Assembly (NCBI GenBank): GCA_030674455.1
Contig: JAUSGQ010000065.1
Location: 1 to 63,510 of the forward strand
Origin: a bacterium
GTDB taxonomy: Bacteria; Patescibacteriota; Minisyncoccia; Phycocordibacterales; UBA2100
Reading direction: 5' to 3'
Length of the DNA stretch: 63,510 nt
Below are positions 13,244 through 63,510 of this stretch, in pieces (position 1 is the first letter of the stretch; each line of letters opens with the position of its first letter). The notes under the pieces were generated by a model. That model did no database searches. It saw only the letters and a program-made list of their open reading frames with translations, and had not been told where the DNA came from. Made by a program: the position numbers and the translations under genes.

Positions 13244-13367
13244 ACCCCGTTAGAAGTTTCGGAAGTCAGGAATAGCATCAACCGAAGATTTCTTTATCAG
13301 AATTATCAAATCTCTTTGGTCAAGCATTTTATGAAACGGAAGCATCGCTTCCTACTTCTAACGGGGT
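13244..13367. repeat. 124-nt element bounded by 14-bp inverted repeats
   Basis: ACCCCGTTAGAAGT (13244-13257) pairs with ACTTCTAACGGGGT (13354-13367). Confidence 0.7.
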
Positions 13368-13398
13368 GTTATAATTCAATGGCGCATGGCCTCTCTGC

Positions 13399-13436
13399 TT
13401 TTACATTTTTGACTTTTGATTTTTACATTTTGACTT
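13399..13436 (+). promoter_or_regulatory. two direct repeats TTTTACATTTT(T)GACTT just upstream of pilB
   Basis: 13399-13415 and 13421-13436, period 22 nt, ending 6 nt before the ATG at 13443. Confidence 0.5.
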
Positions 13437-13442
13437 AATTTT

Positions 13443-15182
13443 ATGTATATCTCCGACACCCATTTAAAAACATTTCTCGCGGATGCGGGACTTGTCTCGC
13501 AGAAGGATTTTGACGTGGCAGAACGGGAAGCAAAGGGAAAGGGAAAGCAAGTCGGCGAGGTTCTTGTCTCAAAAAGCGCAATAGGCGAGGACGAACTTCG
13601 CAGAACATACGCGTACATTCTCGGAATCCCGTTCGTTTCGCTTACCGGAACAAAAATAAAATTCGAAACGCTCTCTCTCATACCCGAACCGGTCGCGCGG
13701 CGCAACAATATCATCGCCTACAACCGCCGCGGCGACGAACTCGAGGTCGCGATGCTCGACACGGATGACCTGGCAGCGATTGATTTCATAAAAAAGACAA
13801 CGCACCTCAAGATTTTGTCGCGCCTTACTGACGTGGCATCGGTGAAATTCGCGCTCAAAGAATACCAGCAGTCGCTCAAAGATAATCTCGGCGATGTAAT
13901 CGAGCGGGAAACCGTTGCGCTTCTAAAATCCGCTCCGGAAAATAAAGAAGAGGACTTGCGCCAGGTTGCTGAAGGAGTGCCAGCCGTGCGAATCGTAGAT
14001 ACGCTCATCCGCCATGCCAATGCGCAGGGCGCCTCCGACATCCACATCGAGCCCTTGGAAGAATCACTCCTCATTCGCTATCGCATAGACGGAATTTTGC
14101 ATGACGCGATGGAACTTCCGAAACATGCCGCGAACGCGATAACGGCTCGCGTAAAAGTTTTGGCGAATATGAAACTCGATGAGCACCGCCTGCCGCAGGA
14201 CGGCCGCTTCGGCGCGGAGTCCGGAGGCGACAAAATATCATTTCGCGTTTCTGTTCTGCCCACATACTTTGGAGAGAAAATAGTGATGCGGCTCTTGCGC
14301 GACAATATTTCCGGATTCACGCTTGAATACATCGGTTTTCACGGGCTCGCTCTGGAGCGCATGCATGAAGCGATGCGAAGTACAACGGGCATGATCCTTG
14401 CCACAGGCCCAACAGGCGCGGGAAAGTCGACGACCCTATACACGCTCTTGGACCTCGTCAACACTCCTAACGTGAATATTTCGACGATTGAGGACCCCAT
14501 CGAATATCAGATGGCGCGTGTCAATCAAACGCAGGTCCGTCCCGAAATCGGTTTTACATTTGCGAACGGTTTGCGTAGCCTCGTACGCCAAGACCCCGAC
14601 ATCATCATGGTCGGCGAAATTCGCGACAAGGAAACCGCATCGCTCGCGATAAACGCCGCGCTCACCGGACACCTCGTTCTCTCTACGCTGCACACGAACT
14701 CTGCGGCAGGCGCTATCCCGCGGCTTTTGGACATGGGTGTTGAGCCGTTCCTTCTCGTTTCAACTCTGCGCGTGATTGTCGGACAGCGCCTGGTGCGGAA
14801 ACTCTCGCCCGACCGCGAGAAGTACGAGCTTTCGCGCAACGAGCAGATGCAGCTTGAGAAAGAAGTTGATGCCGGCGCAGTCTTGCGCTCGCTCAAAGAA
14901 GAAAAAGCGGTCCCCAAGGAAGCCACATGGAAAAATGTTCCGTTCTATCGCCCAAAGGAAACTGCAGAATCTCCATCCGGCTATTCGGGGCGGATCGGAA
15001 TTCACGAAGTTCTTCCCGTAACCTTGACCATTAAAGAATTGATAATGGCGAGCGGAACAGGCGATGCACTCGAAAAACAGGCGCGCTCGGAGGGGATGCT
15101 CTCGATGAGCGAGGACGGGATATTTAAAGCGGCGCAGGGAATTACTACAATTGAAGAAGTGCTTCGTGTTATTACGGAGTAA
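13443..15182 (+). CDS. pilB: type IV pilus / type II secretion assembly ATPase (PilB/GspE family)
   Basis: T2SSE_N-like N-terminus, Walker A GPTGAGKSTT, DPDIIMVGEIRD and LVLSTLHTNSAAGAI. Confidence 0.9.
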   Translation: MYISDTHLKTFLADAGLVSQKDFDVAEREAKGKGKQVGEVLVSKSAIGEDELRRTYAYILGIPFVSLTGTKIKFETLSLIPEPVARRNNIIAYNRRGDELEVAMLDTDDLAAIDFIKKTTHLKILSRLTDVASVKFALKEYQQSLKDNLGDVIERETVALLKSAPENKEEDLRQVAEGVPAVRIVDTLIRHANAQGASDIHIEPLEESLLIRYRIDGILHDAMELPKHAANAITARVKVLANMKLDEHRLPQDGRFGAESGGDKISFRVSVLPTYFGEKIVMRLLRDNISGFTLEYIGFHGLALERMHEAMRSTTGMILATGPTGAGKSTTLYTLLDLVNTPNVNISTIEDPIEYQMARVNQTQVRPEIGFTFANGLRSLVRQDPDIIMVGEIRDKETASLAINAALTGHLVLSTLHTNSAAGAIPRLLDMGVEPFLLVSTLRVIVGQRLVRKLSPDREKYELSRNEQMQLEKEVDAGAVLRSLKEEKAVPKEATWKNVPFYRPKETAESPSGYSGRIGIHEVLPVTLTIKELIMASGTGDALEKQARSEGMLSMSEDGIFKAAQGITTIEEVLRVITE

Positions 15183-15191
15183 TAACACGAA

Positions 15192-15226
15192 GTATTCTGT
15201 ATACGGTATTCCGTATTCTGTATGAT
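15192..15226 (+). repeat. five GTATNNN heptads (array contains the ATG of the next gene)
   Basis: GTATTCT GTATACG GTATTCC GTATTCT GTATGAT with an exact 7-nt period. Confidence 0.9.
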
Positions 15227-15581
15227 TCAAAGGTTTACTGACCTGCATGCATGGCAAGAAGCGCATAAATTGGTACTTTTGGTGTATAAAATCACGCGTT
15301 CATATCCGCGCGAAGAACAATTTGGATTGGTGAATCAGAGCAGACGCGCAGTAGTTTCAATAACATCAAACATCGCGGAAGGATTTGGGCGTAGCACAAG
15401 AAAAGACAAAGTTAATTTTTACATGATGGCGCGTACCTCGCTGACAGAATTGCGCAATCAAATAATCATTGCTCGCGACCTCATGTATATTGACACAAAG
15501 ACAGATGAACAATTTTGCGTTTCCGCTGAATCAGTAGCAAAACTTATATCTGGACTTGAGCGCTCTGCGTCAGATAAATAA
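15222..15581 (+). CDS. four-helix-bundle protein (23S rRNA intervening-sequence protein family)
   Basis: FTDLHAWQEAHKLVLLVYKIT...FGLVNQSRRAVVSITSNIAEGFGR...FYMMARTSLTELRNQ matches the family signature known from memory. Confidence 0.85.
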   Translation: MIQRFTDLHAWQEAHKLVLLVYKITRSYPREEQFGLVNQSRRAVVSITSNIAEGFGRSTRKDKVNFYMMARTSLTELRNQIIIARDLMYIDTKTDEQFCVSAESVAKLISGLERSASDK

Positions 15582-15593
15582 TGTTTTGTATTT

Positions 15594-15626
15594 ATACCGA
15601 ATACAATATACAGAATACGGTATACT
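15594..15626 (-). repeat. five inverted heptads (ATAC cores every 7 nt)
   Basis: ATAC cores at 15594, 15601, 15608, 15615 and 15622. This is the inverted partner of the 15192-15226 array. Confidence 0.9.
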
Positions 15627-15632
15627 TAAGGC

Positions 15633-16850
15633 ATGCGCTTTGCTTATACTGCCGAAAAAAATGACGGCGAAGTTTACAAGGGAATAGCCCAAGCGCAGGA
15701 CCGTTTTGAACTGTACGAAATAATTCGGCGCGAGGGAGCGCACATAATCTCCATTAATGAAGAAGTGAATCGCGGGGTTTTTAGTTTTTCATACTGGAAC
15801 GCCAAACTATCCAGCGTTTCGGAATACGAGAAAATTCTATTCGCGCGAAATTTGGGCGCCATGCTCGGCGCGGGATTATCGCTTGCACGCGCGCTGTCGG
15901 TCATGGAGAGACAGATAAAAAATCCGAAAATGTCGAACATCGTATCCGAACTATCGAGCGATGTGCGCAGAGGGGAGTCATTTCACGCATCGCTCGCAAA
16001 ACACCCTGCCGCGTTCAGCAAGCTCTTGGTTGCAATGGTACGCGCTGGCGAAGAAGGAGGAGATCTGCCCGCATCGCTCACGACCGTCGCCGACCAGATG
16101 GAGCGCATGTACAGTCTGAAAAAGAAAATCCACGGGGCTCTGATATATCCTTCGATCGTCGTATTGGCCATGGTGGGCATTACCATACTCATGATGATTA
16201 AAGTCGTGCCGACTCTGGCGCAAACGTTCTTAGAAATGAAGATCGCATTGCCAATGTCTACGCAAGTAATAATTTCCATAAGCAACTTCTTAGTGCAATA
16301 CACAGTGTTGGCGCTCGTATTAATTTTCGGAATATTTGCAGCTGTGTATTTTTCGCTCCGAACGTCGGTCGGCAAACGTCTTGGCGATTTCGTATCATTA
16401 CACCTGCCGATCATAGGAACGCTCACGCGGGAAGTTAATGCGGCGCGAACTTCGCGCACGCTGGCTTCTCTTCTTGCTTCCGGCGTTGATGTGCTGACAT
16501 CTCTCGATATAGCCGGCGAAGTCGTGCAAAACTCCTACTTTCAAAAAGTTATTCGCGACGCGCGGATAGCCGTGGGACAGGGCCAGCAATTGTCGGCAAT
16601 TTTTGCCAAACGCGACGATCTATATCCGACCTTCGTGGGAGAGATGATGTCGGTTGGTGAGGAGACTGGACAAACCGGTGAAATGTTAAAACGTCTCGCT
16701 CTCTTTTACGAGGATGAAGTGGACCGAAAGACAAAGGACATGTCGACGGTTATTGAACCGTTTCTTATGGTCTTTATTGCTGCGGGAGTCGGATTTTTTG
16801 CCGTCTCGATGATAAGCCCCATATATTCTTTGTCGGAACACATCGGGTAG
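15633..16850 (+). CDS. pilC: type IV pilus platform protein (PilC/GspF family)
   Basis: Two GspF-type repeats (LARNLGAMLGAGLSLARAL; TSRTLASLLASGVDVLTSL) and three TM segments. Confidence 0.9.
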   Translation: MRFAYTAEKNDGEVYKGIAQAQDRFELYEIIRREGAHIISINEEVNRGVFSFSYWNAKLSSVSEYEKILFARNLGAMLGAGLSLARALSVMERQIKNPKMSNIVSELSSDVRRGESFHASLAKHPAAFSKLLVAMVRAGEEGGDLPASLTTVADQMERMYSLKKKIHGALIYPSIVVLAMVGITILMMIKVVPTLAQTFLEMKIALPMSTQVIISISNFLVQYTVLALVLIFGIFAAVYFSLRTSVGKRLGDFVSLHLPIIGTLTREVNAARTSRTLASLLASGVDVLTSLDIAGEVVQNSYFQKVIRDARIAVGQGQQLSAIFAKRDDLYPTFVGEMMSVGEETGQTGEMLKRLALFYEDEVDRKTKDMSTVIEPFLMVFIAAGVGFFAVSMISPIYSLSEHIG

Positions 16851-16866
16851 GGCACAGGAGTATACC

Positions 16867-16985
16867 GTATATGGTATTCAGTATTCTGTATAAGAATCAC
16901 AGCAGAAGCGACTCGCGCGCATTTCATACGGAATACGGAATACGGAATACGGAATACTCTCCTCGGGCGCGCCGCGCCCGAGGAG
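16867..16985 (+). repeat. heptad array / spacer / inverted heptad array / GC hairpin module 1
   Basis: GTAT cores at 16867, 16874, 16881 and 16888. ATAC cores at 16926, 16933, 16940, 16947 and 16954. Perfect 13+13 hairpin at 16959-16985. Confidence 0.9.
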
Positions 16986-18733
16986 TGACTCTCATCGACA
17001 CGCTCGTTGCAAGCGCTCTCATGCTCGTCGTGTTTGTGGGAATAGCGGGAGTCTTTAAGTTGAGCGTCGACGTGATTACGAACAACAAGGCGCGCGCCGG
17101 AGCAATCGCACTGGCGAACGAGCGAATGGAGGACATTCGTTCTCTGTCGTATGCATTGGTGGGAACTGTCGGAGGAATTCCTTCGGGCTCCATAGCACAA
17201 TCGGACACAGTGGTTCAGAACGCAATTACATATACGCGCCGTACCACCGTTATGTATGGAGACGACCCCTACGACGGGCTTGGTGCTGCGGACACCAAAC
17301 CGGCGTCGGCTCCGACATCGCTCGATTACAAAATAGCGCGCGTGGACGTGGCGTGGGAATCGCGCACCGGCACTCGGCACCTGACATTTGTGACGAGAAT
17401 AGAGCCGACGAACGGCATTGAAACGCCATGTCCTGTGACCGCGCCCTGCGGAACGCTCGCAATTTCCGTTTATAACGCTTCAACAGAACCGATATCCAAT
17501 GCTAGCGTGCGCATAGTGAATTCCGGCACGAGTCCGATTGTCGACACTACTATCTACACAAACTCTCTGGGAGAAATGGCGCTCGGCGGCGTCCCGGCGG
17601 CGTCCGGATATGAAGTTACCGTTACAAAATCGGGGTACAGCACCGACCGCACATACAATCCGACATCGCAAAATACCAATCCGACGCCGGGTCCGTTTAC
17701 GGTTTCTTCCAATCAAACGACTTCAGGAACATTCCGAATCGACCTTCTCTCAAGCTTGACGGTCAACACGTATTCGTTGAGCACGAACAGTTGGACGGAT
17801 TTTTTTTCCGACGAGAGCAAAATAAATTGGCAGACCACGACGAACATTGCGGTCTCGGGGAATCAGGCGCGATTCGCGGGTAACCAGCCGTGGCTCCTGC
17901 CGGCAGATTTGTACTCGCAGACCATCACGCCGGTGGCGCTTACGCGGTGGGGAACATTCAGCTGGAATGATACCCGTCCATCGGAAACCACTATTACATA
18001 CCAGGTCTATTATACCGACGGCGCTGTTACAGCTCCGATCCCGGACAATATTCTCACCGGAAATATTGCGGGATTCTCGACGGAATCAACTACTTCTGTT
18101 GATTTGAGTGCAATTCCCGCGGACGAATACCCGAGCCTCATACTTGAAGCGTATCTTGTGGCGCAAAACCCGAACGCACCCTCTCCGTCGATACAAGATT
18201 GGAGTTTGACGTATGACAGCGGACAGGGAATTGCGATTCCATTTACTCTCCGCGGCGCAAAAACCATCGGAAGCGGACCAAGCGGCACTGTTTATAAATA
18301 TAGTCAGTTGCATACGACGAATTCTTCGGGAACGTTTTCTCTGCCCGCTATCGAATGGGATACATATACGATGTCGGTTGCCGCATCCACCGGCTACGAT
18401 ATTTCCACTTCTTGTCCGACGCAGCCGATAGCTCTAGAGCCGAATTCTTCAACAACGACACTGCTGTATCTTTCACCGCACACGACAAATTCCCTGCTGG
18501 TGGATGTGAAGAACGGCACGGGAGCGTATCTTTCCGGCGCAACGGTGGAAATCAAGAAGGGAAGCGCTACCCAGGATAAAACTGCGGATGCTTGCGGACA
18601 GGCATTTTTTGGAGGTCTCACGAACGGACAATATACGGTGACTGTCACAGAAGACGGATACGTGACATCAACAACACCGAGTGTAGATGTGACTAATTAC
18701 TCGACGGTTTCGGTAATTATGGAAAGTATTTAG
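16871..18733 (+). CDS. large pilin-like protein with prepilin-type N-terminus and CarboxypepD_reg-like beta domains
   Basis: G|VTLIDTLVASALMLVVFVGIAGVF class-III signal core. Repeats of the type ISVYNAS...VRIVNSG and LLVDVKNGTGAYLSGATVEIKKG. The start is at an ATG inside the heptad array. Confidence 0.75.
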   Translation: MVFSILYKNHSRSDSRAFHTEYGIRNTEYSPRARRARGVTLIDTLVASALMLVVFVGIAGVFKLSVDVITNNKARAGAIALANERMEDIRSLSYALVGTVGGIPSGSIAQSDTVVQNAITYTRRTTVMYGDDPYDGLGAADTKPASAPTSLDYKIARVDVAWESRTGTRHLTFVTRIEPTNGIETPCPVTAPCGTLAISVYNASTEPISNASVRIVNSGTSPIVDTTIYTNSLGEMALGGVPAASGYEVTVTKSGYSTDRTYNPTSQNTNPTPGPFTVSSNQTTSGTFRIDLLSSLTVNTYSLSTNSWTDFFSDESKINWQTTTNIAVSGNQARFAGNQPWLLPADLYSQTITPVALTRWGTFSWNDTRPSETTITYQVYYTDGAVTAPIPDNILTGNIAGFSTESTTSVDLSAIPADEYPSLILEAYLVAQNPNAPSPSIQDWSLTYDSGQGIAIPFTLRGAKTIGSGPSGTVYKYSQLHTTNSSGTFSLPAIEWDTYTMSVAASTGYDISTSCPTQPIALEPNSSTTTLLYLSPHTTNSLLVDVKNGTGAYLSGATVEIKKGSATQDKTADACGQAFFGGLTNGQYTVTVTEDGYVTSTTPSVDVTNYSTVSVIMESI

Positions 18734-18850
18734 TATATGGTATTCCGTATTCAGTATAAAAAAGGCCGCAAAAGCGAATCGCCCGCATTTCATACCGTAT
18801 ACCGTATACAGAATACAAAATACTGTGCGCGTGCGCTTCGCGCCTGCGGA
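18726..18850 (+). repeat. heptad/hairpin module 2
   Basis: Same architecture as module 1, with a weaker GC-rich segment at 18824-18850. Confidence 0.85.
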
Positions 18851-19420
18851 ATGACCCTGATAGAAACAGTAGTCGGAATTGCGGTTCTAATTATCGTGTT
18901 TCTTGCGCTCACATCCTCGCTCCTATATTTCTATCGCACGAACAGGTACGCAATCGAACAATCGAGCGCGGTCACTTCTGCACAGCGGGGAATTGATAAG
19001 GCAATTCGCACTATCCGCGAGGCGAGCTATTCGAGCGAGGGAGCGTTTCCTATTGTTTCAATCTCTGCCAATGACTTCGTGTTCTATGCCGACGTTGATT
19101 CGGACCCATTGATAGAGAAAATCCACTACTATATTTCAGGCACATCCCTAATGCAGGGGGCTGTAGACGCGACCGGCGACCCGCCTGCATACACCGGTGC
19201 CGAAGTAGCATCGATGATTTCGGATTACGTGCACAATATAGACCAGGGTATCCCCATGTTCCATTATTTTGATGCGAACGGTACTGCAATAACCGATTAC
19301 CAAAACCAATGGGCGAACGTGCGTTTTGTGAAAGCGAGCATCGTAGTAAATGTTGACCCCAACAAACTTCCGAATCAAATGACTCTTAGTTCATCCGCGG
19401 CGCTGAGGAACCTGAAATAA
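18737..19420 (+). CDS. pilin-like (pseudopilin) protein
   Basis: G|MTLIETVVGIAVLIIVFLALTS is a classic prepilin cleavage/methylation motif with Glu at +5. Confidence 0.75.
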   Translation: MVFRIQYKKGRKSESPAFHTVYRIQNTKYCARALRACGMTLIETVVGIAVLIIVFLALTSSLLYFYRTNRYAIEQSSAVTSAQRGIDKAIRTIREASYSSEGAFPIVSISANDFVFYADVDSDPLIEKIHYYISGTSLMQGAVDATGDPPAYTGAEVASMISDYVHNIDQGIPMFHYFDANGTAITDYQNQWANVRFVKASIVVNVDPNKLPNQMTLSSSAALRNLK

Positions 19421-19549
19421 TAGTATGCAGTATTCAGTATTCAGTATTCGGTATAAGAAGAGAGACAAGAAATGCGATGCATCCGTATTTCATACTGAAT
19501 ACTGTATACAGAATACGGAATACTCCCCGCGGGCGCTACGCGCCCGCGG
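19421..19549 (+). repeat. heptad/hairpin module 3
   Basis: A GTATTCA/GTATTCG array, an inverted ATAC array, and a 10+10 hairpin at 19527-19549 with a TAC loop. Confidence 0.85.
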
Positions 19550-21062
19550 TGTGACGGTGATACTCGTTCTCGCATTCATGGGAGTTTTTGCGCTGATTAC
19601 CGGAAGTATCGCGAGTTACGTTCTTGAGCAGGGAAAATACGGTCGCGCGCTTTTTGCGCGCGAACAGGCGCTCCACATTGCCGAAGCCGGTCTCGAATAT
19701 TACAAGTGGTGGCTTGGCCGCCAGCCCTCAAGCGTCCTTACAACCGGTGTCGGCCTGGTTTCACCATCCACATACACCGTGAACGACCCCGAAGGCGGAA
19801 CATTAGGAAGCGCGGTCATAACCGCGACGCCATCTTTGCAATGCGGAGCTGTGCAATGGATAGACCTCGCGTCCCGCGGAACCTCAAATTCATCCGTCGG
19901 TTTTCCCCGAACTCTCCTAGCCCGCTATATGAAGCCCTCCGTCGCGGAGTATTCGTACCTGTTCAATAATACGGTCTGGATAGGCAGCACGGATTCTGCA
20001 ATCGGCCCGCAACACGCAAACAATGGTTTCCGCATGGATGGATCGAGTAATTCCACCATTTCCTCTGCTGTCTCACAGGTATATTGCGACGGTACCGCGG
20101 CTTCTCTTGGTTGCAATGGCGTCTCGCCCAACCCCGGTCCAGGATTAAAAAATGGCGTCTTCGGATTGAGTTTAAATCAAGCTCTCTGGCAGTATGGAAT
20201 TCCACCTATTGACTTCCCCGGCATGGCTGTCAGTTTCCCAACGCTTAAAAACTATGCTTCACAAAACTCAAGCGGCGGAATCATGCTGGGCAAGAATTCC
20301 GTAATCCAGGGTTCCCGAACATGGACGTGGAACCCGCCAACCGAAGTTGGCGGTGCGGAGACGAACGGGTATCACCTCGTCTTCAAATCGGATGGCACAG
20401 TTGACATTTATCGAGTCACCGCGACGAACGGCAACAATACGATATACAGCGGAAATATTTCATATGGCTCTACTGGCGCTACGGTATGGAAATACACCTA
20501 TCCGGTCATTGCAACGCAATCACAAATATTTGTAGCTAACGTATTGGTTCCATCTGATTGTTCACTCATATTCTCACAGGCCAAAACGTGGATTGACGGT
20601 ACGGTAAAAGGAAAAGTCACCCTCATTGTGGCCGACCCCGACACCTCGTTTGTTCCGGATATTATTATCAATGACAATATTTCGTATACCACGAACGACG
20701 GCTCGAGCGGGCTCACGGCAGTTGCTGAGGGTTCTATCAGGATTGGCCTCGTAGTACCCGACACGCTTTCGGTGCGGGGAATTTTTGTTGCCCAGACCGG
20801 CAACTACAGTCGCGATTATTACTATCCCGCAACTGGATATCTCCCATCGGCCTATTATCCATACGCGACACGTACTCGTCTTAATTTGACCGGAACCGTA
20901 GTGTCAAACCAACGCGCAGCGCTTTGTTACGGGGGTACTCCGTGTGTGTCCGGATTCAACAATAGAACCAACGCGTACGACAGAGTACTCGCATCCTCTC
21001 CGCCTCCATTCACGCCTGCTACAAGCGCCGATTACAAACTGTCGTTGTGGCGCGAACAGTAA
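19425..21062 (+). CDS. PilX-N-like pilus-associated protein
   Basis: Hydrophobic N-terminus G|VTVILVLAFMGVFALITGSIASYV followed by ALHIAEAGLEYYKWWL (PilX_N-like). No Glu at +5. Confidence 0.65.
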   Translation: MQYSVFSIRYKKRDKKCDASVFHTEYCIQNTEYSPRALRARGVTVILVLAFMGVFALITGSIASYVLEQGKYGRALFAREQALHIAEAGLEYYKWWLGRQPSSVLTTGVGLVSPSTYTVNDPEGGTLGSAVITATPSLQCGAVQWIDLASRGTSNSSVGFPRTLLARYMKPSVAEYSYLFNNTVWIGSTDSAIGPQHANNGFRMDGSSNSTISSAVSQVYCDGTAASLGCNGVSPNPGPGLKNGVFGLSLNQALWQYGIPPIDFPGMAVSFPTLKNYASQNSSGGIMLGKNSVIQGSRTWTWNPPTEVGGAETNGYHLVFKSDGTVDIYRVTATNGNNTIYSGNISYGSTGATVWKYTYPVIATQSQIFVANVLVPSDCSLIFSQAKTWIDGTVKGKVTLIVADPDTSFVPDIIINDNISYTTNDGSSGLTAVAEGSIRIGLVVPDTLSVRGIFVAQTGNYSRDYYYPATGYLPSAYYPYATRTRLNLTGTVVSNQRAALCYGGTPCVSGFNNRTNAYDRVLASSPPPFTPATSADYKLSLWREQ

Positions 21063-21089
21063 GCCATCTCAAAAAACTGACCCGATAGA

Positions 21090-21287
21090 CTAAAAAGCTC
21101 CATCGGGTGGCGGTGGCTCACATCCTCCTCCGTCGGGCGGAGGGTCAACGTGTGTGGGGTCATTCCCGCCGTTGTTGTTATCAGAGTTGTCTGACGGTGG
21201 GGGGTCGGGAATCCACAAGTAGGTGACCACAAACTCGTAGCCATCTTCCCTGGTTCCTGTTTTTATTTTGTTCACTGAAATCCACAT
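21090..21287 (-). CDS. possible small Pro/Asp/Gly-rich protein (65 aa)
   Basis: The ATG is the first triplet of the 21285-21322 palindrome. Composition is odd, so it may be non-coding. Confidence 0.25.
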   Translation of the reverse strand: MWISVNKIKTGTREDGYEFVVTYLWIPDPPPSDNSDNNNGGNDPTHVDPPPDGGGCEPPPPDGAF

Positions 21288-21322
21288 CAGCTACTTCATG
21301 CCATGGCATGGAGTAGCTGATG
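21285..21322. promoter_or_regulatory. palindrome with ATGCCATGGCAT core (copy 1)
   Basis: CATCAGCTACTtcATGCCATGGCATggAGTAGCTGATG. Confidence 0.75.
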
Positions 21323-21410: not shown

Positions 21411-21977
21411 CTAGCGGAGATTAAAGTGCTTCTTAATCCAGCCGTCGTTTTCTATTGTTTCGACTACAGCATACAAAACATCTTTGCCGATTCGCATATC
21501 CGCTTTAAGAAGAGTAATGAGTTCCTCGCAGTCATAGGGGAATACCCACACGCTGTTCTGAAGCCGCAAAAAACCGCACTCTCGGATAAACGCTCGCACT
21601 CGCTCTCTGTCTGCCTTGCGCCTTTGCGATATGTCGAACATGACGATTCGGTACCTTTTATCCCATCGTTTTTTGCGCGCCGACATTAGCCGGGTTCTCT
21701 CTTGTTCAATCGCGAGCGCGCGAGCGCCCTCATCGGTAATTTCAAGGAATTTCTTTCCTTTTCTTTCCACAAAGCGGACAAATCCCCGCACAACAAGCCG
21801 CGAGACTGCAGTGCGCGCCTGAAAAGCGAGTTGATAGCGCTTCTTTCCCATCAATCGCGGGAAAGCTTGGAAAATGTTCGGAGCAATCATTGTTATGGCG
21901 ATAATTCCTGCGATTTCCACGGTTGCAAGTACGGCACTCTGGACATATCCGAGCCGCCGCAATTTTCGTGCCTTCAT
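21411..21977 (-). CDS. wHTH regulator with PaaX-C/Cas2-fold-like C-terminal domain
   Basis: C-terminal motif RYRIVMFDISQRRKADRERVRAFIRECGFLRLQNSVWVFPYD. Start chosen at MKARKL (21977), with the ATG at 21992 as an alternative. The track start at 22142 reads through the upstream palindrome. Confidence 0.7.
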   Translation of the reverse strand: MKARKLRRLGYVQSAVLATVEIAGIIAITMIAPNIFQAFPRLMGKKRYQLAFQARTAVSRLVVRGFVRFVERKGKKFLEITDEGARALAIEQERTRLMSARKKRWDKRYRIVMFDISQRRKADRERVRAFIRECGFLRLQNSVWVFPYDCEELITLLKADMRIGKDVLYAVVETIENDGWIKKHFNLR

Positions 21978-22002
21978 CTCCACATTTCCCATATTGGCTA
22001 TT

Positions 22003-22038
22003 CTATGCCATGGCAGAGAGTAGCCAATGTTTAACTTC
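22003..22038. promoter_or_regulatory. palindrome with ATGCCATGGCA core (copy 2)
   Basis: ATTGGCTAttctATGCCATGGCAgagagTAGCCAAT, 11-26 nt upstream of the regulator start. Confidence 0.75.
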
Positions 22039-22179
22039 ATGCGCATGTGGATAATTACATGTTGATAATCAAATGCATAAGACCAATGCCTGCAAGGTGG
22101 GCCAGTGTACACAAACTGTATAAATAACAGATATTTTTTCAAAAACAGTGTGTTACAATCACTTTCATAACAAATCTAT

Positions 22180-24542: not shown

Positions 24543-24604
24543 GTATACCGTATACTGTATGCCGTATACATACTGAATACCAAATACTAAATACCAAATA
24601 TAAA
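24543..24604. repeat. GTATNNN x4 directly abutting ATACNNN x5 heptad arrays
   Basis: GTAT cores at 24543, 24550, 24557 and 24564. ATAC cores at 24570, 24577, 24584, 24591 and 24598. The array sits in the divergent HIT/recJ spacer. Confidence 0.9.
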
Positions 24605-28476: not shown

Positions 28477-29070
28477 TTATTTCACGTCCGCAAATCGCTT
28501 CTCCATTACATCCCAATTCAAATTCTTGAAAAATGCGTCGATATATTTTCCTTTGCCTGCCGCTCCGTAATCAAGAATGAATGCGTGTTCCCACACATCA
28601 AGCGCCAAGATTATCGGAAGCGTGACGAAATGCCCCTGATGCTGTTCGCCGGTGAAGCCGGTGAGCAATTCTTTTGCCTCGGGGTCGTAATAGAGAATCG
28701 CCCAGCCGGGGCCGCGCATGCTGCCTATCATTTTCATGACCTTCTCGACGTCGAGCGGCTTATAGGTTTCCTCAAGCGCTTTTGCAAGAGGACCATTTAC
28801 ACTGAGCGGATTCGAAGTGCCTTCGAATTGTGTGAAGTAATGCTCGTGGAGCCGCATGCCGCCGAATTCAAATGAGCGGCGCCGCACGAGTTCCGAAATA
28901 GCATGCGCGTACTTCTCCGAGTCACTCATCGCAAGTTCTGCAATTTGTTTGGAAATTGCGTTAAAATTTTTCACATACCCTTCGTACAGACCGATGTGCT
29001 GTTTGACCGATTCGTCGGAAATCCCATCGAGCGATGGCAAGCTAAATTTCTTGGGTTCGTATATGTGCAT
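28477..29070 (-). CDS. Fe/Mn superoxide dismutase
   Basis: The LPSLDG...HIGLYEGYV N-domain, EHYFTQF, and LALDVWEHAFILDY metal-ligand motif. The ATG at 29070 is preferred over 29121. Confidence 0.9.
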   Translation of the reverse strand: MHIYEPKKFSLPSLDGISDESVKQHIGLYEGYVKNFNAISKQIAELAMSDSEKYAHAISELVRRRSFEFGGMRLHEHYFTQFEGTSNPLSVNGPLAKALEETYKPLDVEKVMKMIGSMRGPGWAILYYDPEAKELLTGFTGEQHQGHFVTLPIILALDVWEHAFILDYGAAGKGKYIDAFFKNLNWDVMEKRFADVK

Positions 29071-29078
29071 ATTAAGGC

Positions 29079-29106
29079 AGGTTATAGGGAATAGGTTATA
29101 GGTGTT
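29079..29106. repeat. AGGTTNN heptad array (near-identical copy at 47963-47990)
   Basis: AGGTTAT AGGGAAT AGGTTAT AGGTGTT, immediately upstream of sod. Confidence 0.85.
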
Positions 29107-32287: not shown

Positions 32288-32360
32288 TGCAATTCGCAAA
32301 TGAAATACCAATTATCAAAATCACATATTTTTTGCAAATTGAAACTTGCAAACTGCAAAT
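32288..32360. repeat. TGCAA-core heptad words in the rpsL-rpsG spacer (inverted arrangement)
   Basis: (T/C)GCAA cores at 32288 and 32295, then at 32333, 32347 and 32354. Spacings within each group are multiples of 7. Confidence 0.75.
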
Positions 32361-37358: not shown

Positions 37359-37410
37359 CGAATTAGCAAATTCGTGGCTCGGCCCGAATTAGCAAATTCG
37401 TGGCTCGGCC
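37359..37410 (+). promoter_or_regulatory. perfect 2 x 26-nt tandem repeat, each unit containing the palindrome CGAATTagcaAATTCG
   Basis: CGAATTAGCAAATTCGTGGCTCGGCC at 37359-37384 and 37385-37410, 90 nt upstream of the A2M start. Confidence 0.8.
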
Positions 37411-37499: not shown

Positions 37500-40400
37500 A
37501 TGGACCCTGTGCCAAACCGCATTTCAACCGAGCCTGTTTTGCATCCAGACGTTGCCCCCATCGGCACGCCGCAACATCATTATCGGTGGAAGAAGGTCGT
37601 GATTTTCGGCATCGTTCTAATTCTATTTCTTGCCGGCATTCTCGCTAAGAGTATTTTGGGAGGGACATCGTTCTCTACTCCAAAAACAAATTACGTTCCT
37701 GTCTATACGCTCGTGAATGAAAAGATTTCCGAACACGGTGCAATAATAATTAATTTACCCAAGGGAGTCTCTCAAAAGGGAGCGGAAACAAAAGTATCTT
37801 TTGACCCCGGTATTGCAGGAGAGTGGATTGAATCAGATTTGCCGAACGCGGTAGTGTATAAACCCGCCGCCGCGCTCGCACTCGGCAAGCATTACAACGT
37901 TGCCCTCGCGACGGACGCGGGCGCAATCAAGAAAGATTTCTTGGTTGATGAAGACCCGCGCGTTGTGAGCGTTTTCCCCGATTCAAATGCGGAGGCGGAG
38001 CTCGCTTCGGCAATTACGGTTGTCTTTAACAGGCCGATGGTTCCACTTACGACACTCTCTGAATTGGATAAAAAAGATGTCCCGGTTTCCGTTTCTCCGG
38101 CGACACCCGGAAAATTCAAATGGATAAGCACGCGGACTCTGCAATTTATTCCCTCAGCGACGCTATATGGCTCCTCTCATTACACGGTAACCGTCAATCC
38201 AGGATTCATTTCAATGGACGGGATTTCGGTCGCGCCTAAAACGTTTTCATTTAGGACAAAACAACTTCGTCTTAACAGCTCGACATCCGGCACTATCGTC
38301 TATAACGAGCCCATCAATTTCTATTTCAACCAGCCGGTAGATATACAGAAAACTTCCGGAGAAATAAAGGTCATAAATAACGCAACAAATGCCCAGATAG
38401 AATTTGTCGCAAGCTACGGCACTTCTTATATTTGGGACGCGAATAATAATTCCGAAAGAGAAGTTCAGGACAAATCTATCGTCAGTATTCTCCCCAAGAA
38501 TTCCAAGAACGGCCATTCAAACGTGTGGGACTTTTCGACTCCCTATACCGCTACGATAAAAACTGCGTACCCGATTGGCGGGGACATAGCGCTTACCGGT
38601 AATGTTCCGCCTCTAACGGTCGGCGCGCCCCCCGGATCCATTGGTTTTGCACCGCTTGTGCCGGGTGGAAGGTATCCATACCCTGTGCCGCAATCGTTTA
38701 ATAATCCTGGTATGGTTCCGCCACAATTGCCGAGTGTCTTTCCGGGAAACTCTGGAGGTTCGGCCGCGATTGCAACGGTGACCACAAGTCCAGTATTGAA
38801 AAGCGTTACCGTCCTTTCCGAAAATACCACCCTGGCCTCGCCCCAGCTTTTTGACCCTACCGGGACCACGACCTTTTCTTTTTATGAAGACATAGACAAA
38901 GAGAAGAGTGGCATAAACGCCAAGGGATTAAAGAATATCGAGTACGGCGAGAAATGCGAGGAAGAAAACAGCGAGGGATATTATTCGAAATCCTGTAAGA
39001 AAGTTAAAGACAAATCACAGCTCATCTTTACTTTTGATGCCTCTGTATACGCGAGTGGAGAAAAAGTGCCGGTTACATTTGAACGCCTGATAAACGCAGG
39101 CGGATACCAGGTGAATACTGAGCCAATCGTTACGGAGCTCACGGTGTACCCGCAGTTGCGCATAACCTCGACTACGCCTGCAAACAATACCGATGGAGCG
39201 AGCGTAAAAGATTTAATCCTCTGCACCAACACTCCCCTGAAAGAATTGGACGGAAAGAAATTTCACGCTGCATTCAAAGCCAACAAGTACATGGTTTTTG
39301 GACGAAAGGATAACCCCTATTTACAAACAAATAATTATTGGGAAAAACCGCGGCCATGCGCTATCGGCGATTACGTAAACAGAATTCATTACGGCCTTCA
39401 TCCGGAGCAGGCGTATGCCATAAATGCCTCTATCGAAGATGTGTTCGGGCAGAAAGCGAATACGCAACTTTCTTTCACGACTGGAAAAGCGCCCAAATTC
39501 TATCTGCGATTCCAGAGTTTGCAGAAAATCTACAATGTCACAACGCCCGAACGCACGAAACTCACGTATGCTACGGAGAATTTCGATTACGTTGACCTTT
39601 CTATATGCAAAGTGAGCGCCGATTCAATGGTTCGCATTCTTGCGGCGCAACCGAGCGACACGAGCACTGCGTCAAATGGCTCCCTTCCGTGCCTCATTTC
39701 GCAATACAAGCAGATTCCGCTGAAACCCGACCAGTGGGTGAACCAATATTTCCAAATAGACCTAAAGGATTATTTTCCGGACCCGCGCGGGCAGTTCATT
39801 CTTTCCTACAGCCATCCGCAGTATGTGAACCGGGAAGGCCTGCCGCTCTACGCGAGAACGTATTTGAGCGTTACTAACTTGGCCGTTGTGGAAAAGCGCG
39901 TTAAATGGTCTTCCTATGACAATCTGCCTGATGTGCCAAGCACAGTCGACCCCGCAACGCGCGGTTCCGTTTACTGGGTGAGCCGGATGCATTCAATGGA
40001 GCCAGAAAATGCGGCATCGGTGAACGTATACAAATCGGGCGGAGCGGATAGATGGGGCAACAACAATACGACAGTGCCGCCCATACTTGCGCTATCGGGT
40101 GCCACGAATGCAAGTGGTTTCGGAGAGTTTCCACTCATTGCGGATGTCGTTGGTGCTGCTGTCATGAGCGGTCCGTCTACAGGTGCCGACGCTAACTCCG
40201 TCGGCCAGGAATCGGCGGTGGTATCCACGTGGGTGGACACAATAAGCAATAACAGTTGGCGGAATGCATATCAGAACGAGAAGATGTATGTGTATACCGA
40301 CAGACCTATTTATCGGCCCGGCCAGGAAGTCTTTATTAAAGGCTTGTACCGATTGGACTTTGACGGGGTTTTTGAAGTATTCCGCGATGCCGATGTAAAA

Positions 40401-46515: not shown

Positions 46516-46671
46516 TCATGCGCCTTCCTGCCTGTGCGTGTGCGCCTGACTGCGAGCGTGTCCGCTCAGGCAGGCACGCAGACAGGTTGTATTGTCGGCG
46601 TTTTGACGTGTTAGTTAGTTTGCAAGTTAAAAATTATTAGTATTAATTATTAGTCAGTAAATAAAAATAAT

Positions 46672-54120: not shown

Positions 54121-54182
54121 ATTCAGCAACCCGTTTCTTTCTTTAAACCGAAATACGCAAGGACCACCCTTATATTCCCTGA

Positions 54183-54212
54183 AACCTAAGACCTAGAACC
54201 TACAACCTTCCT
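54183..54212. repeat. AACCT-core heptad array
   Basis: AACCT, GACCT, AACCT and AACCT at 54183, 54190, 54197 and 54204. Confidence 0.85.
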
Positions 54213-55393: not shown

Positions 55394-55753
55394 ATGGAAC
55401 AAGACCAGCAGTTTTTGGAGTATGTCGTTAAGGCATTGGCCGACCATCCGGAGGATGTAAAAATTACTCGTACCGTTGATGAAATGGGTGTATTGCTTGT
55501 GCTTTCCGTCCACAAGGACGACATGGGAAAGATTATCGGACGCTCGGGACAGACGGCGAAAGCGATTCGCACAGTTCTACGAGTAGTCGGTATGAAGAAC
55601 GACGCGCGCGTAAACCTGAAAATCGAAGAGCCGGAAGGAAGCGAGCGGACGCCTCGCAGAAGCGAAAATGCAGGCGCGAGCGCTGCACCCGCAGAGCCAT
55701 ACGTGCGCGACACTACAGTTGAGGATGTGATACGAGACCTGAAGGCAGAATGA
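55394..55753 (+). CDS. khpA: KH-domain RNA-binding protein (KhpA/YlqC-like) with C-terminal tail
   Basis: FLEYVVKALADHPEDVKI...GKIIGRSGQTAKAIRTVL. Confidence 0.8.
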   Translation: MEQDQQFLEYVVKALADHPEDVKITRTVDEMGVLLVLSVHKDDMGKIIGRSGQTAKAIRTVLRVVGMKNDARVNLKIEEPEGSERTPRRSENAGASAAPAEPYVRDTTVEDVIRDLKAE

Positions 55754-55840
55754 GCGTATAGCGAATAGCGTTTAGCGTATAGAGGCAAACAACTGCGAAT
55801 TTTGTATTTCCTAAACGCTCTACGCTAGTCGCTAATCGCT
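55753..55840. repeat. AGCGNNN x5 / spacer / inverted CGCT x4 heptad arrays
   Basis: AGCG at 55753, 55760, 55767 and 55774 (AGAG at 55781). CGCT at 55816, 55823, 55830 and 55837. Confidence 0.9.
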
Positions 55841-55846
55841 ACCTTT

Positions 55847-56641: not shown

Positions 56642-56684
56642 TTCCTAAAACCTAGAACCTGGCATCTATAACCTATTCCTGCCT
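56642..56684. repeat. AACCT heptad array
   Basis: Cores at 56642, 56649, 56656, (56663) and 56670. The array ends at the ATG at 56685. Confidence 0.85.
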
Positions 56685-58968: not shown

Positions 58969-58998
58969 ACCCAGTAGGTGATTCTACTGAATCAGGTG
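58969..58998 (+). promoter_or_regulatory. 30-nt motif shared with 55266-55295
   Basis: ACCCAGTAGGTgATTCTaCTGAATcAGGTG, 123 nt upstream of rplJ. The CAGTAG/CTACTG stem is preserved via a G-U pair in the other copy. Confidence 0.5.
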
Positions 58999-59056
58999 TC
59001 AGGTGCTAGGTGTCAGGAAATTCCTGGAACCTAAAACCTGGAACCTGGAACCTGTT
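58994..59056. repeat. AGGTGNN x3 facing NNAACCT x4 heptad arrays
   Basis: AGGTG at 58994, 59001 and 59008. AACCT at 59028, 59035, 59042 and 59049. Confidence 0.9.
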
Positions 59057-63375: not shown

Positions 63376-63510
63376 GGTTCTCAGAATTCCTTACGGGAGT
63401 TCTGAGTAAGGGCGTGCGGTGGATGCCTTGACTCTAAAGGGCGATGAAGGACGCGGCTTAGCTGCGATACGCTTCGGGGAGGTGCTATGCAACCTGCGAT
63501 CCGAAGATTT
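63376..63510 (+). rRNA. rrl: 23S rRNA, 5' end (partial, continues beyond the window)
   Basis: GGTGGATGCCTTGACTCTAAAGGGCGATGAAGGACGCGGCTTAGCTGCGATA matches the conserved 23S 5' domain (E. coli GGTGGATGCCCTGGCAGTCAGAGGCGATGAAGGACGTGCTAATCTGCGATA). The exact 5' end is uncertain (63376-63396). Confidence 0.85.

Follow-up and report, generated by a model that had tools for sequence, protein, structure and literature searches.

The 63,510-nucleotide (nt) contig JAUSGQ010000065.1 of assembly GCA_030674455.1, referred to here as the window, carries type IV pilus genes of an uncultivated, Kaiserbacteria-like bacterium within the Patescibacteria (this being the name borne by homologues in public records), arranged in an operon in which three consecutive pilin-like genes start within arrays of 7-nt repeats. 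Comparison of this operon with its relatives indicates that the three repeat modules are probably miniature, gene-less copies of an array-bounded junction element, the long form of which carries a gene of the PF05635 family, and that these copies have been tolerated in frame within the cleavable leader of the prepilins.

The three pilin-like open reading frames (ORFs), with ATGs at 16871, 18737 and 19425, lie on the plus strand directly downstream of pilC (15633-16850, +; T2SSF domain, PF00482). All the modules keep the same layout: five GTATNNN units, a spacer of 34-37 nt, five NNNATAC units and a GC palindrome, immediately followed by the codon of the Gly residue at position -1 of the mature pilin. 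Every left array consists of four GTATNNN units and a last GTAT, that is, five GTAT cores over 32 nt at 7-nt spacing, and every right array comprises five ATAC cores over 32 nt. The window has 28 occurrences of the pattern of three successive GTAT units, GTATNNNGTATNNNGTAT, whereas 100 dinucleotide shuffles give an expectation of 0.00. In module 1, the left array (16860..16891, +) holds the only in-frame start, the ATG at 16871, located 20 nt past the pilC stop. The reading frame then runs through a 34-nt spacer (16892..16925, +) homologous to those of modules 2 and 3, a perfect right array of composition ATACGGA x4 + ATAC (16926..16957, +) and a perfect 13+13 palindrome (16959..16985, +), which codes for PRARRARG and whose 3′ arm provides the Arg(-2) and Gly(-1) codons. 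The left array of module 2 (18726..18757, +) overlaps the TAG stop of the first pilin gene (18731-18733) and holds the ATG at 18737, 3 nt past that stop; its right array (18792..18823, +) also falls within the reading frame, and its palindrome (about 18826..18850, +) is imperfect and codes for ARALRACG. As for module 3, the ATG at 19425 sits inside the left array (19423..19454, +) 4 nt past the stop of the second pilin gene, the in-frame right array spans 19492..19523 (+), and the palindrome (19527..19549, +) has a 10+3+10 structure with a TAC loop and codes for PRALRARG. The original prediction, which described these ATGs, arrays and hairpins, was reproduced in all its sequences and coordinates, including leaders of 38, 38 and 42 amino acids (aa) without any in-frame ATG, GTG or TTG from the array ATG to Gly(-1).

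The three leaders thus end in R/C-G, and in all cases Gly(-1) directly precedes a hydrophobic N-terminal helix of about 20 aa: G/VTLIDTLVASALMLVVFVGIA, G/MTLIETVVGIAVLIIVFLALT and G/VTVILVLAFMGVFALITGSIA, respectively. The first mature protein (16985..18733, +; VTLIDTL..., 582 aa) has a C-terminal CarboxypepD_reg domain and Asp at position +5, the second (18851..19420, +; MTLIETV..., 189 aa) has Glu at this position, and the third (19551..21062, +; VTVILVLAF...) has Leu and therefore lacks a Glu/Asp at +5. None of them reaches the Pfam N_methyl model at E<=0.01, whereas their homologues P0017 and P0079 do carry PF07963, and neither Pfam nor NCBIfam gave a family for proteins 2 and 3.

Read-through of the modules in related pilin loci

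Using the mature part of protein 2 as query, 19 related loci from species-representative genomes and 77 from metagenomes were gathered, which together with the window make up a comparative set of 97 sequences (loci are numbered here with an L) collected around one operon and including redundant assemblies. The set contains 188 pilin-like genes, 63 of them with a heptad array ending <=75 nt from the +1 codon (54 after de-duplication). The homologues fall in three groups. The first comprises ordinary prepilins with leaders of 5-12 aa (e.g., MKKQQG/ITMIE or MNARG/MTLVE) and no arrays; the second has long leaders that are evident translations of heptad arrays of several unit families; and the third is composed of gene calls starting at Met(+1), as in 'MTLIE'. 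Each pilin-like gene of the window has a leader with its own start codon and an open frame, of 38-42 aa in comparison with the 5-12 aa of the array-less orthologues.

The reading of the whole module as a long leader, already contemplated in the original prediction, gains clear comparative support from the conservation of frame, start codons and residues before the cleavage site. A stop-free in-frame ATG is reachable upstream in 62 of the 63 array-bearing pilin genes, against 5 and 7 in the other two frames. This nearest in-frame ATG lies upstream of the right array in 59 of the 63, and in a single gene it falls between the array and Gly(-1). Moreover, the +1 codon is one that cannot start translation (GTC, GTT, GCN, CTN, TTT and others) in 37 of the 63, including the closest relative L001 (GTC and CTT). 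Position -1 is Gly in 63 out of 63 genes, through all four GGN codons, and position -2 is Arg in 53. These comparisons show that the right array and everything after it behave as coding sequence, and translation in the window would most probably start at the left-array ATG, the sole start available there. A purely intergenic module, with proteins starting at +1 and devoid of a cleavable leader, could be argued from the three +1 codons of the window (GTG, ATG and GTG), which are all possible starts, from gene callers that begin many homologues at 'MTLIE', and from non-pilin genes, where the ATG lies 6-8 nt past the array. However, the non-start codons of the relatives, the synonymous variation under which Gly(-1) and Arg(-2) are kept and the marked preference for one frame all contradict a leaderless start. 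The same sequence comparison contradicts an assembly artefact, since the architecture recurs in dozens of independent assemblies from several projects, and both versions of this alternative can be regarded as highly improbable.

Among the array-bearing relatives the leader measures from 15 to 53 aa and shows no conserved peptide sequence, a variability compatible with a conserved cleavage site. Even the near-identical strains represented by L001 and L063, both recovered from groundwater, differ in the leader of the first pilin by a 30-nt insertion that keeps the frame. The distance from the upstream stop to the ATG is bimodal, the start codon being found either at the beginning of the left array, as in the window, or just after it, and it tends to follow the array when the left unit holds a stop triplet. 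As for the finding of array-less orthologues with normal leaders, which had been proposed as evidence against the translated module, many of them were indeed found, and by comparison they show that the pilin gene can dispense with the module. They do not show, on the other hand, that the module is untranslated where it is present. In terms of annotation, gene callers are inconsistent for these pilins, giving either 'MTLIE' starts or long repeat-encoded N-termini, and the comparison shows the most probable start. For pilus biology, it follows that more than 100 nt of repeat DNA can be accommodated in a cleavable prepilin leader.

The GC palindrome was originally taken as part of a single heptad/hairpin module, a view that does not hold. 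Strong GC hairpins (folding energy <= -8 kcal/mol) are found in 19 out of 54 array-bearing leaders and in 21 out of 102 array-less ones, so an obligatory hairpin, missing from about two thirds of the array-bearing leaders and present in array-less ones, had to be rejected. The GC palindrome is a separate, independently inserting element, with recurrent families that code for PRExxSRG, PRARxARG and GLPAQAG. In L063, at the place that corresponds to L001:4127, a 30-nt GC palindrome lies within the loop of a similar one (the CCTGCCTGCG...CGCAGGCAGG family) in the leader of the first pilin, with the frame kept, which hints at a family of tiny palindromic elements able to nest in one another. The window has a related palindrome at 46527-46574, upstream of a gene ending at 46515 (-).

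Heptad arrays at gene junctions and around PF05635 genes

The heptads do not form a module proper to the pilin genes: arrays of this kind are also present at pilB, pilC, HIT/recJ, trmD, rplJ, rpsG and other genes, and around PF05635 genes of several phyla. Across the loci, 152 non-redundant arrays were counted, of which 142 score 4-5 copies, with a median of 31 nt, an interquartile range of 28-32 nt and a modal number of five cores. There are 83 pairs of neighbouring inverted arrays of the same unit, with separations of either 16-76 nt or about 370-400 nt. The units themselves are diverse, with more than 20 core types (GTAT, GTAG, AGCTTTC, AGTTTTC, TAGCC, AGGT and AGCG among others), and at least GTAT, AGGT, AGCG, TTTTGAC and TGCAAAC occur in the window. 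The suggestion that the nucleic-acid architecture and not the peptide was the conserved object is thus borne out: genomes differ in unit family but agree in unit number, in the 7-nt period and in the inverted arrangement. Most arrays fall outside coding sequence, and the distance from the array end to the ATG of a long ORF peaks at 6-8 nt.

In the window, arrays precede pilB, pilC, HIT, recJ, trmD, rpsG, rplJ and other genes. A single TTTTGAC-type array of 4.3 units (13407..13436, +) ends 6 nt before the pilB ATG (13443). Contiguous inverted GTAT/ATAC arrays fill the spacer between the divergent HIT and recJ genes (24543..24604), where each arm is an ATAC-type array upstream of its own gene, at about 7 nt from the HIT ATG and abutting the recJ ATG. 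This spacer, together with 15594-15625 between the stop of the PF05635 gene and the pilC ATG, corroborates that the arrays also occupy untranslated places. An inverted AGCGNNN/NNNCGCT pair (55748..55841, +) ends 5 nt before the trmD ATG, an AGGTGNN/ACCTNNN pair lies upstream of rplJ (58992..59054, +), and another heptad array is found at 32333-32359. Unpaired AGGT/ACCT arrays are also present at 54178-54208, 29079-29103 and 56644-56675, two of them directly 5′ of the starts at 29070 (minus) and 56685 (plus), and the window contains no PF05635 gene with this unit family. The arrays are distributed unevenly, at 6 out of 6 junctions of the pilus operon compared to about 7 out of 55 other junctions of the window (p about 3e-5), which suggests that they do something in the pilus operon; start-codon occlusion, processing and protein binding are the candidate roles.

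The Shine-Dalgarno motif is nearly absent from the gene starts of the window (about 35 genes, e.g., at 2845-, 10475-, 13202-, 15633+, 24535-, 55170- and 60633+). Many genes have a -10-like box (TATACT, TATGAT, TATAAT or TAGTAT) whose end lies 6-11 nt from the ATG, a sign that the mRNAs of this organism may be leaderless or have very short leaders. The TATACT located 6-8 nt before the pilC ATG is kept even in array-less loci, whereas other unit families do not resemble -10 boxes. A scan of 13300-21300 for sigma-70 promoters and terminators gave counts equal to those of shuffled sequences and was uninformative.

The long form of the junction element is found between pilB (13443-15182, +; a PilB-like ATPase by tblastn synteny and by the MshEN/T2SSE domain calls on the L109 orthologue) and pilC. 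A left GTATNNN array of five cores (15192..15223, +), which had been overlooked in the original prediction, bears the ATG of the PF05635 gene at its 3′ edge, and the right NNNATAC array, also with five cores (15594..15625, +), ends 7 nt before the pilC ATG (15633), its last unit giving the TATACT. The two arrays pair around the whole gene (15222-15581, +), which sits in the 'loop' between them and encodes a four-helix-bundle protein of 119 aa of the family PF05635/TIGR02436, known as '23S rRNA intervening-sequence protein'. In the related loci, the array pairs with the long spacer always enclose a PF05635 gene, located between pilB and pilC. Furthermore, inverted heptad arrays of assorted unit families bracket 11 out of the 11 independent PF05635 genes examined, which include the copy of the window and others from unrelated contexts and come from Kaiser-, Woese-, Moran-, Levy- and Doudnabacteria, other Patescibacteria and one Flavobacterium, and the same holds for a PDDEXK_3 gene (n=1). 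Among these contexts, two PF05635 copies and the PDDEXK_3 gene lie inside a pyruvate:ferredoxin oxidoreductase operon of Moranbacteria, and further PF05635 genes are found inside another pilin operon (Levybacteria), in a thymidylate-synthesis operon of another Patescibacteria lineage and in one more pyruvate:ferredoxin oxidoreductase operon, whose contig has no assigned lineage. In L101:2190-5030, L107:3300-6400 and L110:5950-6420, PF05635 genes and one PDDEXK_3 gene are interspersed among the subunit genes of pyruvate:ferredoxin oxidoreductase and thymidylate-synthesis operons, each with its own inverted arrays; in L101 the right array would make up the first 12 PorA codons if the ATGA stop/start overlap is the true start.

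The link between the long and the short forms comes from L016, whose short module between pilB and pilC aligns to both ends of the gene-carrying module of L002 and is therefore an internal-deletion derivative. It is on this basis that the pilin modules may be read as the gene-less form of an array-bounded cassette. A similarity between the spacers of modules 1-3 and the ends of PF05635 genes was judged by eye and found too weak to be claimed.

Evolution and possible roles of the arrays

The three pilin modules of one genome share their unit family and spacer sequence, and the family changes between genomes at the same sites. In all six arrays of L057 the unit is AGTTTTC/AAAACT, in place of the AGTATTC/GAATAC of the window and of L001, which amounts to the same A/T swap in every unit of both arms. 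Module copies are 74-80% identical within the window, and module 1 of the window is closer to the non-orthologous module 2 of L001 (81% identity) than to the orthologous module 1 (69%). The pattern is that of modules evolving in concert within each genome, by gene conversion or re-insertion. Two pairs of contigs illustrate how modules differ between related strains. L030:5040-5300 and L057:5009-5269 are 97-99% identical from the +1 codon of the third pilin gene on and 67-78% identical upstream, where their modules are unrelated (GTAG/CTAC arrays with a GLPA-type palindrome in one, AGTTTTC/AAAACT arrays with a PRARSARG palindrome in the other), so that a recombination breakpoint falls at the boundary between the module and the mature pilin. 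The second pair, L023:2551-2674 and its counterpart in L024, lies on contigs with 99.9% identity elsewhere. A 125-nt deletion, whose length is not divisible by 3, separates the two; all of module 1 is lost through it, together with the first codons of mature pilin 1, and it is either a real hairpin-associated deletion allele or an assembly error.

Repeats whose unit is not a multiple of three, located in the 5′ coding region of surface-filament genes, are reminiscent of phase variation, in which slippage of the 7-nt units would switch the pilins on and off as the CTCTT repeats of Neisseria opa genes do. Several arrays are perfect (e.g., ATACGGA x4.6) and, being free of stops, would let a change of frame be felt only downstream. 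However, array length is tightly fixed, with 142 of the 152 arrays at 4-5 copies and the narrow interquartile range given above, and near-identical contigs from different samples agree in copy number (pairs L001/L063, L023/L069, L030/L031 and L068/L072), which makes this explanation very improbable. Moreover, most arrays are non-coding and many are imperfect.

The explanation that we favour, that of gene-less junction elements tolerated in the leader, can be set out as follows. The element consists of two inverted arrays of about five 7-nt units, and a long copy of it is located 1.3 kb upstream of the modules, between pilB and pilC. The genes of this tightly packed minor-pilin operon abut or overlap (the median distance from the upstream stop to the ATG is 4 nt in array-less orthologues), which would leave the cleavable class-III leader as the chief stretch between genes that can be dispensed with. 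Insertions would survive there only if they kept the frame and brought no stops, and such elements may have become fixed. Translation would begin at the left-array ATG, 3-20 nt past the upstream stop, and proceed through the spacer, the right array and an independently acquired GC palindrome that codes for ...R-A-R-G, after which the prepilin peptidase would presumably remove the 38-42 aa leader at the Gly residue. In the mRNA, the two arms can pair and bury the AUG, and since this AUG is only 3-20 nt past the upstream stop, the pilin might then be translated mainly by ribosomes coming from the upstream cistron. The primary role of the arrays, be it protein binding, processing or mobility, would be common to the non-pilin copies.

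A different view of the same pairing, closer to the original prediction, is that of a dedicated structured RNA, in which arrays and GC hairpins have been selected to control the translation of each pilin, for instance through a sequestered AUG that ties translation strictly to the upstream cistron or is released by some condition or helicase. Modules 1 and 3 are predicted to fold strongly and to enclose the AUG in the stem (-63.7 and -60.4 kcal/mol with the GC stem counted in, z about -8). The short stop-to-ATG distances of 20, 3 and 4 nt, the near absence of Shine-Dalgarno motifs, which would make an accessible, unstructured start important, the over-representation of arrays at pilus-operon junctions and the joint change of both arms between genomes would all agree with this view. 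But module 2 folds weakly (-35.6 kcal/mol, z -2.3), and the pairing lacks the marks of a selected helix. Complementarity between the arms is 81.5% in register and 81-83% after sliding one arm by 7 or 14 nt, variable positions pair in 45% of the cases in register against 48% out of register, and on the sense strand G.U pairs (41) are not favoured over A.C mismatches (68). As complementarity is not register-specific and G.U is not enriched, there is no covariation signature of a selected RNA helix. The test for compensatory changes that had been advised likewise gave no position-specific compensation between the arms, and the seemingly 'compensatory' A-U/U-A swaps of L057 hit every unit at once, as expected for a concerted change of the unit. 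In addition, unrelated genes and PF05635 genes bear the same arrays, which can also stand as single arms, many orthologues have no module, and about two thirds of the array-bearing leaders lack a strong GC hairpin. At gathering threshold, Rfam only recognized the start of the 23S rRNA (63396) in the window, and an E-value search of 15100-19700 only gave a sub-threshold match of a miRNA precursor to the hairpin of module 3. A translational control element of this kind, for all the stability of two of the modules, is therefore unlikely. What the arrays show is the same unit repeated about five times, inverted and with a period of 7, and a specific RNA helix is not indicated; such a pattern is compatible with a hairpin in any register, with a protein reading the unit on either strand, or with a mechanism of origin.

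A protein partner was considered in its own right, namely that the arrays are binding sites for an oligomeric protein, with one 7-nt unit per subunit, and that translation through them is incidental. The candidates would be the PF05635 protein of the long form, taken as a pentamer that binds single-stranded nucleic acid in a ring like TRAP or HutP, or a ribbon-helix-helix repressor of the omega type that binds double-stranded DNA. A core of 4-5 nt is kept at the exact 7-nt period about five times in inverted blocks while the pairing of variable positions is not, and all 11 PF05635 genes examined sit between such arrays, which offers both a candidate ligand for the protein and a possible origin of the arrays. 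The PF05635 relative bAvd is a pentamer, and the entry of the only solved one, 2GSC, has five chains. A study in Nostoc has also postulated a partner that binds heptamers (bioRxiv 10.1101/2022.06.06.494920). Against this, the 63 kb of the window contain at least three unit families but a single PF05635 gene, and identity among PF05635 proteins stays at 50-60% regardless of the flanking unit family. Nor was a ribbon-helix-helix gene identified in the vicinity, and the PaaX-like gene next to the operon is not kept at this position in the related loci. On balance, this alternative remains rather improbable.

With similarly little confidence we put forward a broader proposal, that inverted five-unit arrays, with or without a PF05635 (or PDDEXK_3) gene, constitute an unrecognised class of gene cassettes, in which a pentamer would bind one array per ring and one unit per subunit, controlling initiation or processing at the adjoining starts, mediating the spread of the cassette, or both. 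Such a class would extend over lineages that appear poor in Shine-Dalgarno sites (here Patescibacteria and Bacteroidota) and possibly take in the heptamer repeats of cyanobacteria and Beggiatoa, and the pilin leaders would then be places where the protein/array system acts directly on translated sequence. That PF05635 sequences track the flanking unit family was examined and rejected, and the absence of such tracking counts against a simple one-to-one specificity.

Several observations weigh against the proposal of tolerated miniature copies. Neither a target-site duplication nor a clean empty site was found in the loci compared, and the sole presence/absence pair, L023/L024, has also lost pilin codons. 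The description as 'miniature copy of a mobile cassette' would thus stand on one deletion derivative and on concerted evolution, and to our knowledge no PF05635 protein is known to act as a transposase. The concentration of arrays at the junctions of the pilus operon would speak for a function more than for passive tolerance, and the lack of an RNA-specific pairing signature weakens the step in which the AUG is occluded. Finally, only the orthologues exclude a start at +1 in the window itself.

Comparison with known repeats and other features of the window

Cyanobacterial short tandemly repeated repetitive (STRR) sequences are heptanucleotide direct repeats near start codons. In Beggiatoaceae, Cyanobacteria and Bacteroidetes, TAACTGA repeats abut start codons in contexts poor in Shine-Dalgarno sites and occasionally enter ORF termini (PMC4679880), and several contiguous heptamer families have been described in Nostoc PCC 7120, together with the postulated partner mentioned above (bioRxiv 10.1101/2022.06.06.494920). 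The arrays reported here resemble these repeats in their tandem 7-nt units (2-8 copies there), in their mostly intergenic location ending a few nt before starts poor in Shine-Dalgarno sites, and in their occasional read-through at protein termini. They differ in forming inverted pairs of fixed size, with about five units each, in having several unit families per genome instead of one dominant heptamer, and in flanking PF05635 genes and sitting in frame in prepilin leaders. The Beggiatoa paper describes an inverted arrangement in a single repeat set only, and a term search of it gave no mention of four-helix-bundle, intervening-sequence or PDDEXK genes (PMC4679880).

The long copy at 15192-15625 also has exactly the layout of a 23S rRNA intervening sequence (IVS). 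In Leptospira and Coxiella, these IVSs have a long inverted-repeat stem and a loop that optionally encodes an S23p/PF05635 ORF. Modules 1-3 keep the stem, with a loop of just 34-37 nt. Unlike IVSs, however, the copies described here lie between or inside protein-coding genes and not in rRNA (the 23S rRNA of the window starts only at 63396), their stems are built of 7-nt repeats, and an excision by RNase III in the pilin copies would sever the start codon from its gene. With miniature inverted-repeat transposable elements (MITEs) and doublets of repetitive extragenic palindromes forming hairpins (REPINs; PMC3116915), the modules share a short palindromic structure, several similar copies per genome, concerted evolution and nested palindrome insertion, and one copy, that of L016, is an internal-deletion derivative of a longer gene-carrying form. 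In contrast with those elements, no transposase or RAYT-type gene and no target-site duplication were seen here, and in place of a fixed terminal inverted repeat the arms are made of tandem heptads whose unit family varies.

Other parallels are more partial. In Neisseria opa genes, CTCTT repeats in the region coding for the leader peptide cause phase variation; the pilin modules likewise place a repeat tract that is not a multiple of 3 inside the leader-coding region of a surface protein, but with a copy number fixed at 4-5 and equal between near-identical strains, and with arrays that are paired, inverted and mostly non-coding. The operators of the ribbon-helix-helix omega repressor of pSM19035 are made of 7-bp heptads in direct and inverted blocks. 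The exact 7-bp period, the contiguous units in both orientations and the position at gene starts are common to both systems, while many unit sequences per genome, arms usually about 30 nt or a whole gene apart, and the lack of an identified cognate protein set the present arrays apart. Regarding the leaders, those of type IVb pilins have about 15-30 aa and those of type IVa pilins 5-10 aa. As in type IVb pilins, the leaders encoded by the modules belong to a class-III signal, with positive charge at their end and Gly at -1, and are longer than those of type IVa. They differ in ranging from 15 to 53 aa, in deriving from repeat DNA, in lacking a conserved peptide sequence and in not being found in orthologues.

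Literature searches on heptanucleotide repeats in Patescibacteria, on IVS proteins with inverted repeats and on combinations of PF05635, PDDEXK_3 and GxxExxY returned no relevant paper, nor was any description found of inverted five-unit arrays as a fixed architecture, of their association with PF05635 or of their in-frame incorporation into prepilin leaders. Heptamers abutting starts and IVSs with PF05635 genes had already been described, so the novelty, among the literature searched, lies in the fixed inverted five-unit arrays, their link to PF05635 and the in-frame leaders. Two poorly understood features are joined in this way, the start-abutting heptamers of bacteria poor in Shine-Dalgarno sites and the very widespread PF05635 family.

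The gene at 21411-22142 (-), a little past the 3′ end of the pilin operon, encodes a PaaX-like protein whose central domain is Cas2-like (PF20803 and PF09827). It was considered as a possible regulator and discarded, as the gene is kept at this position in 0 of the 96 related loci. Elsewhere in the window, a 26-nt unit (CGAATTAGCAAATTCGTGGCTCGGCC x2) is perfectly duplicated in tandem at 37359-37410, about 90 nt 5′ of an ORF of 2262 aa that starts at 37500.

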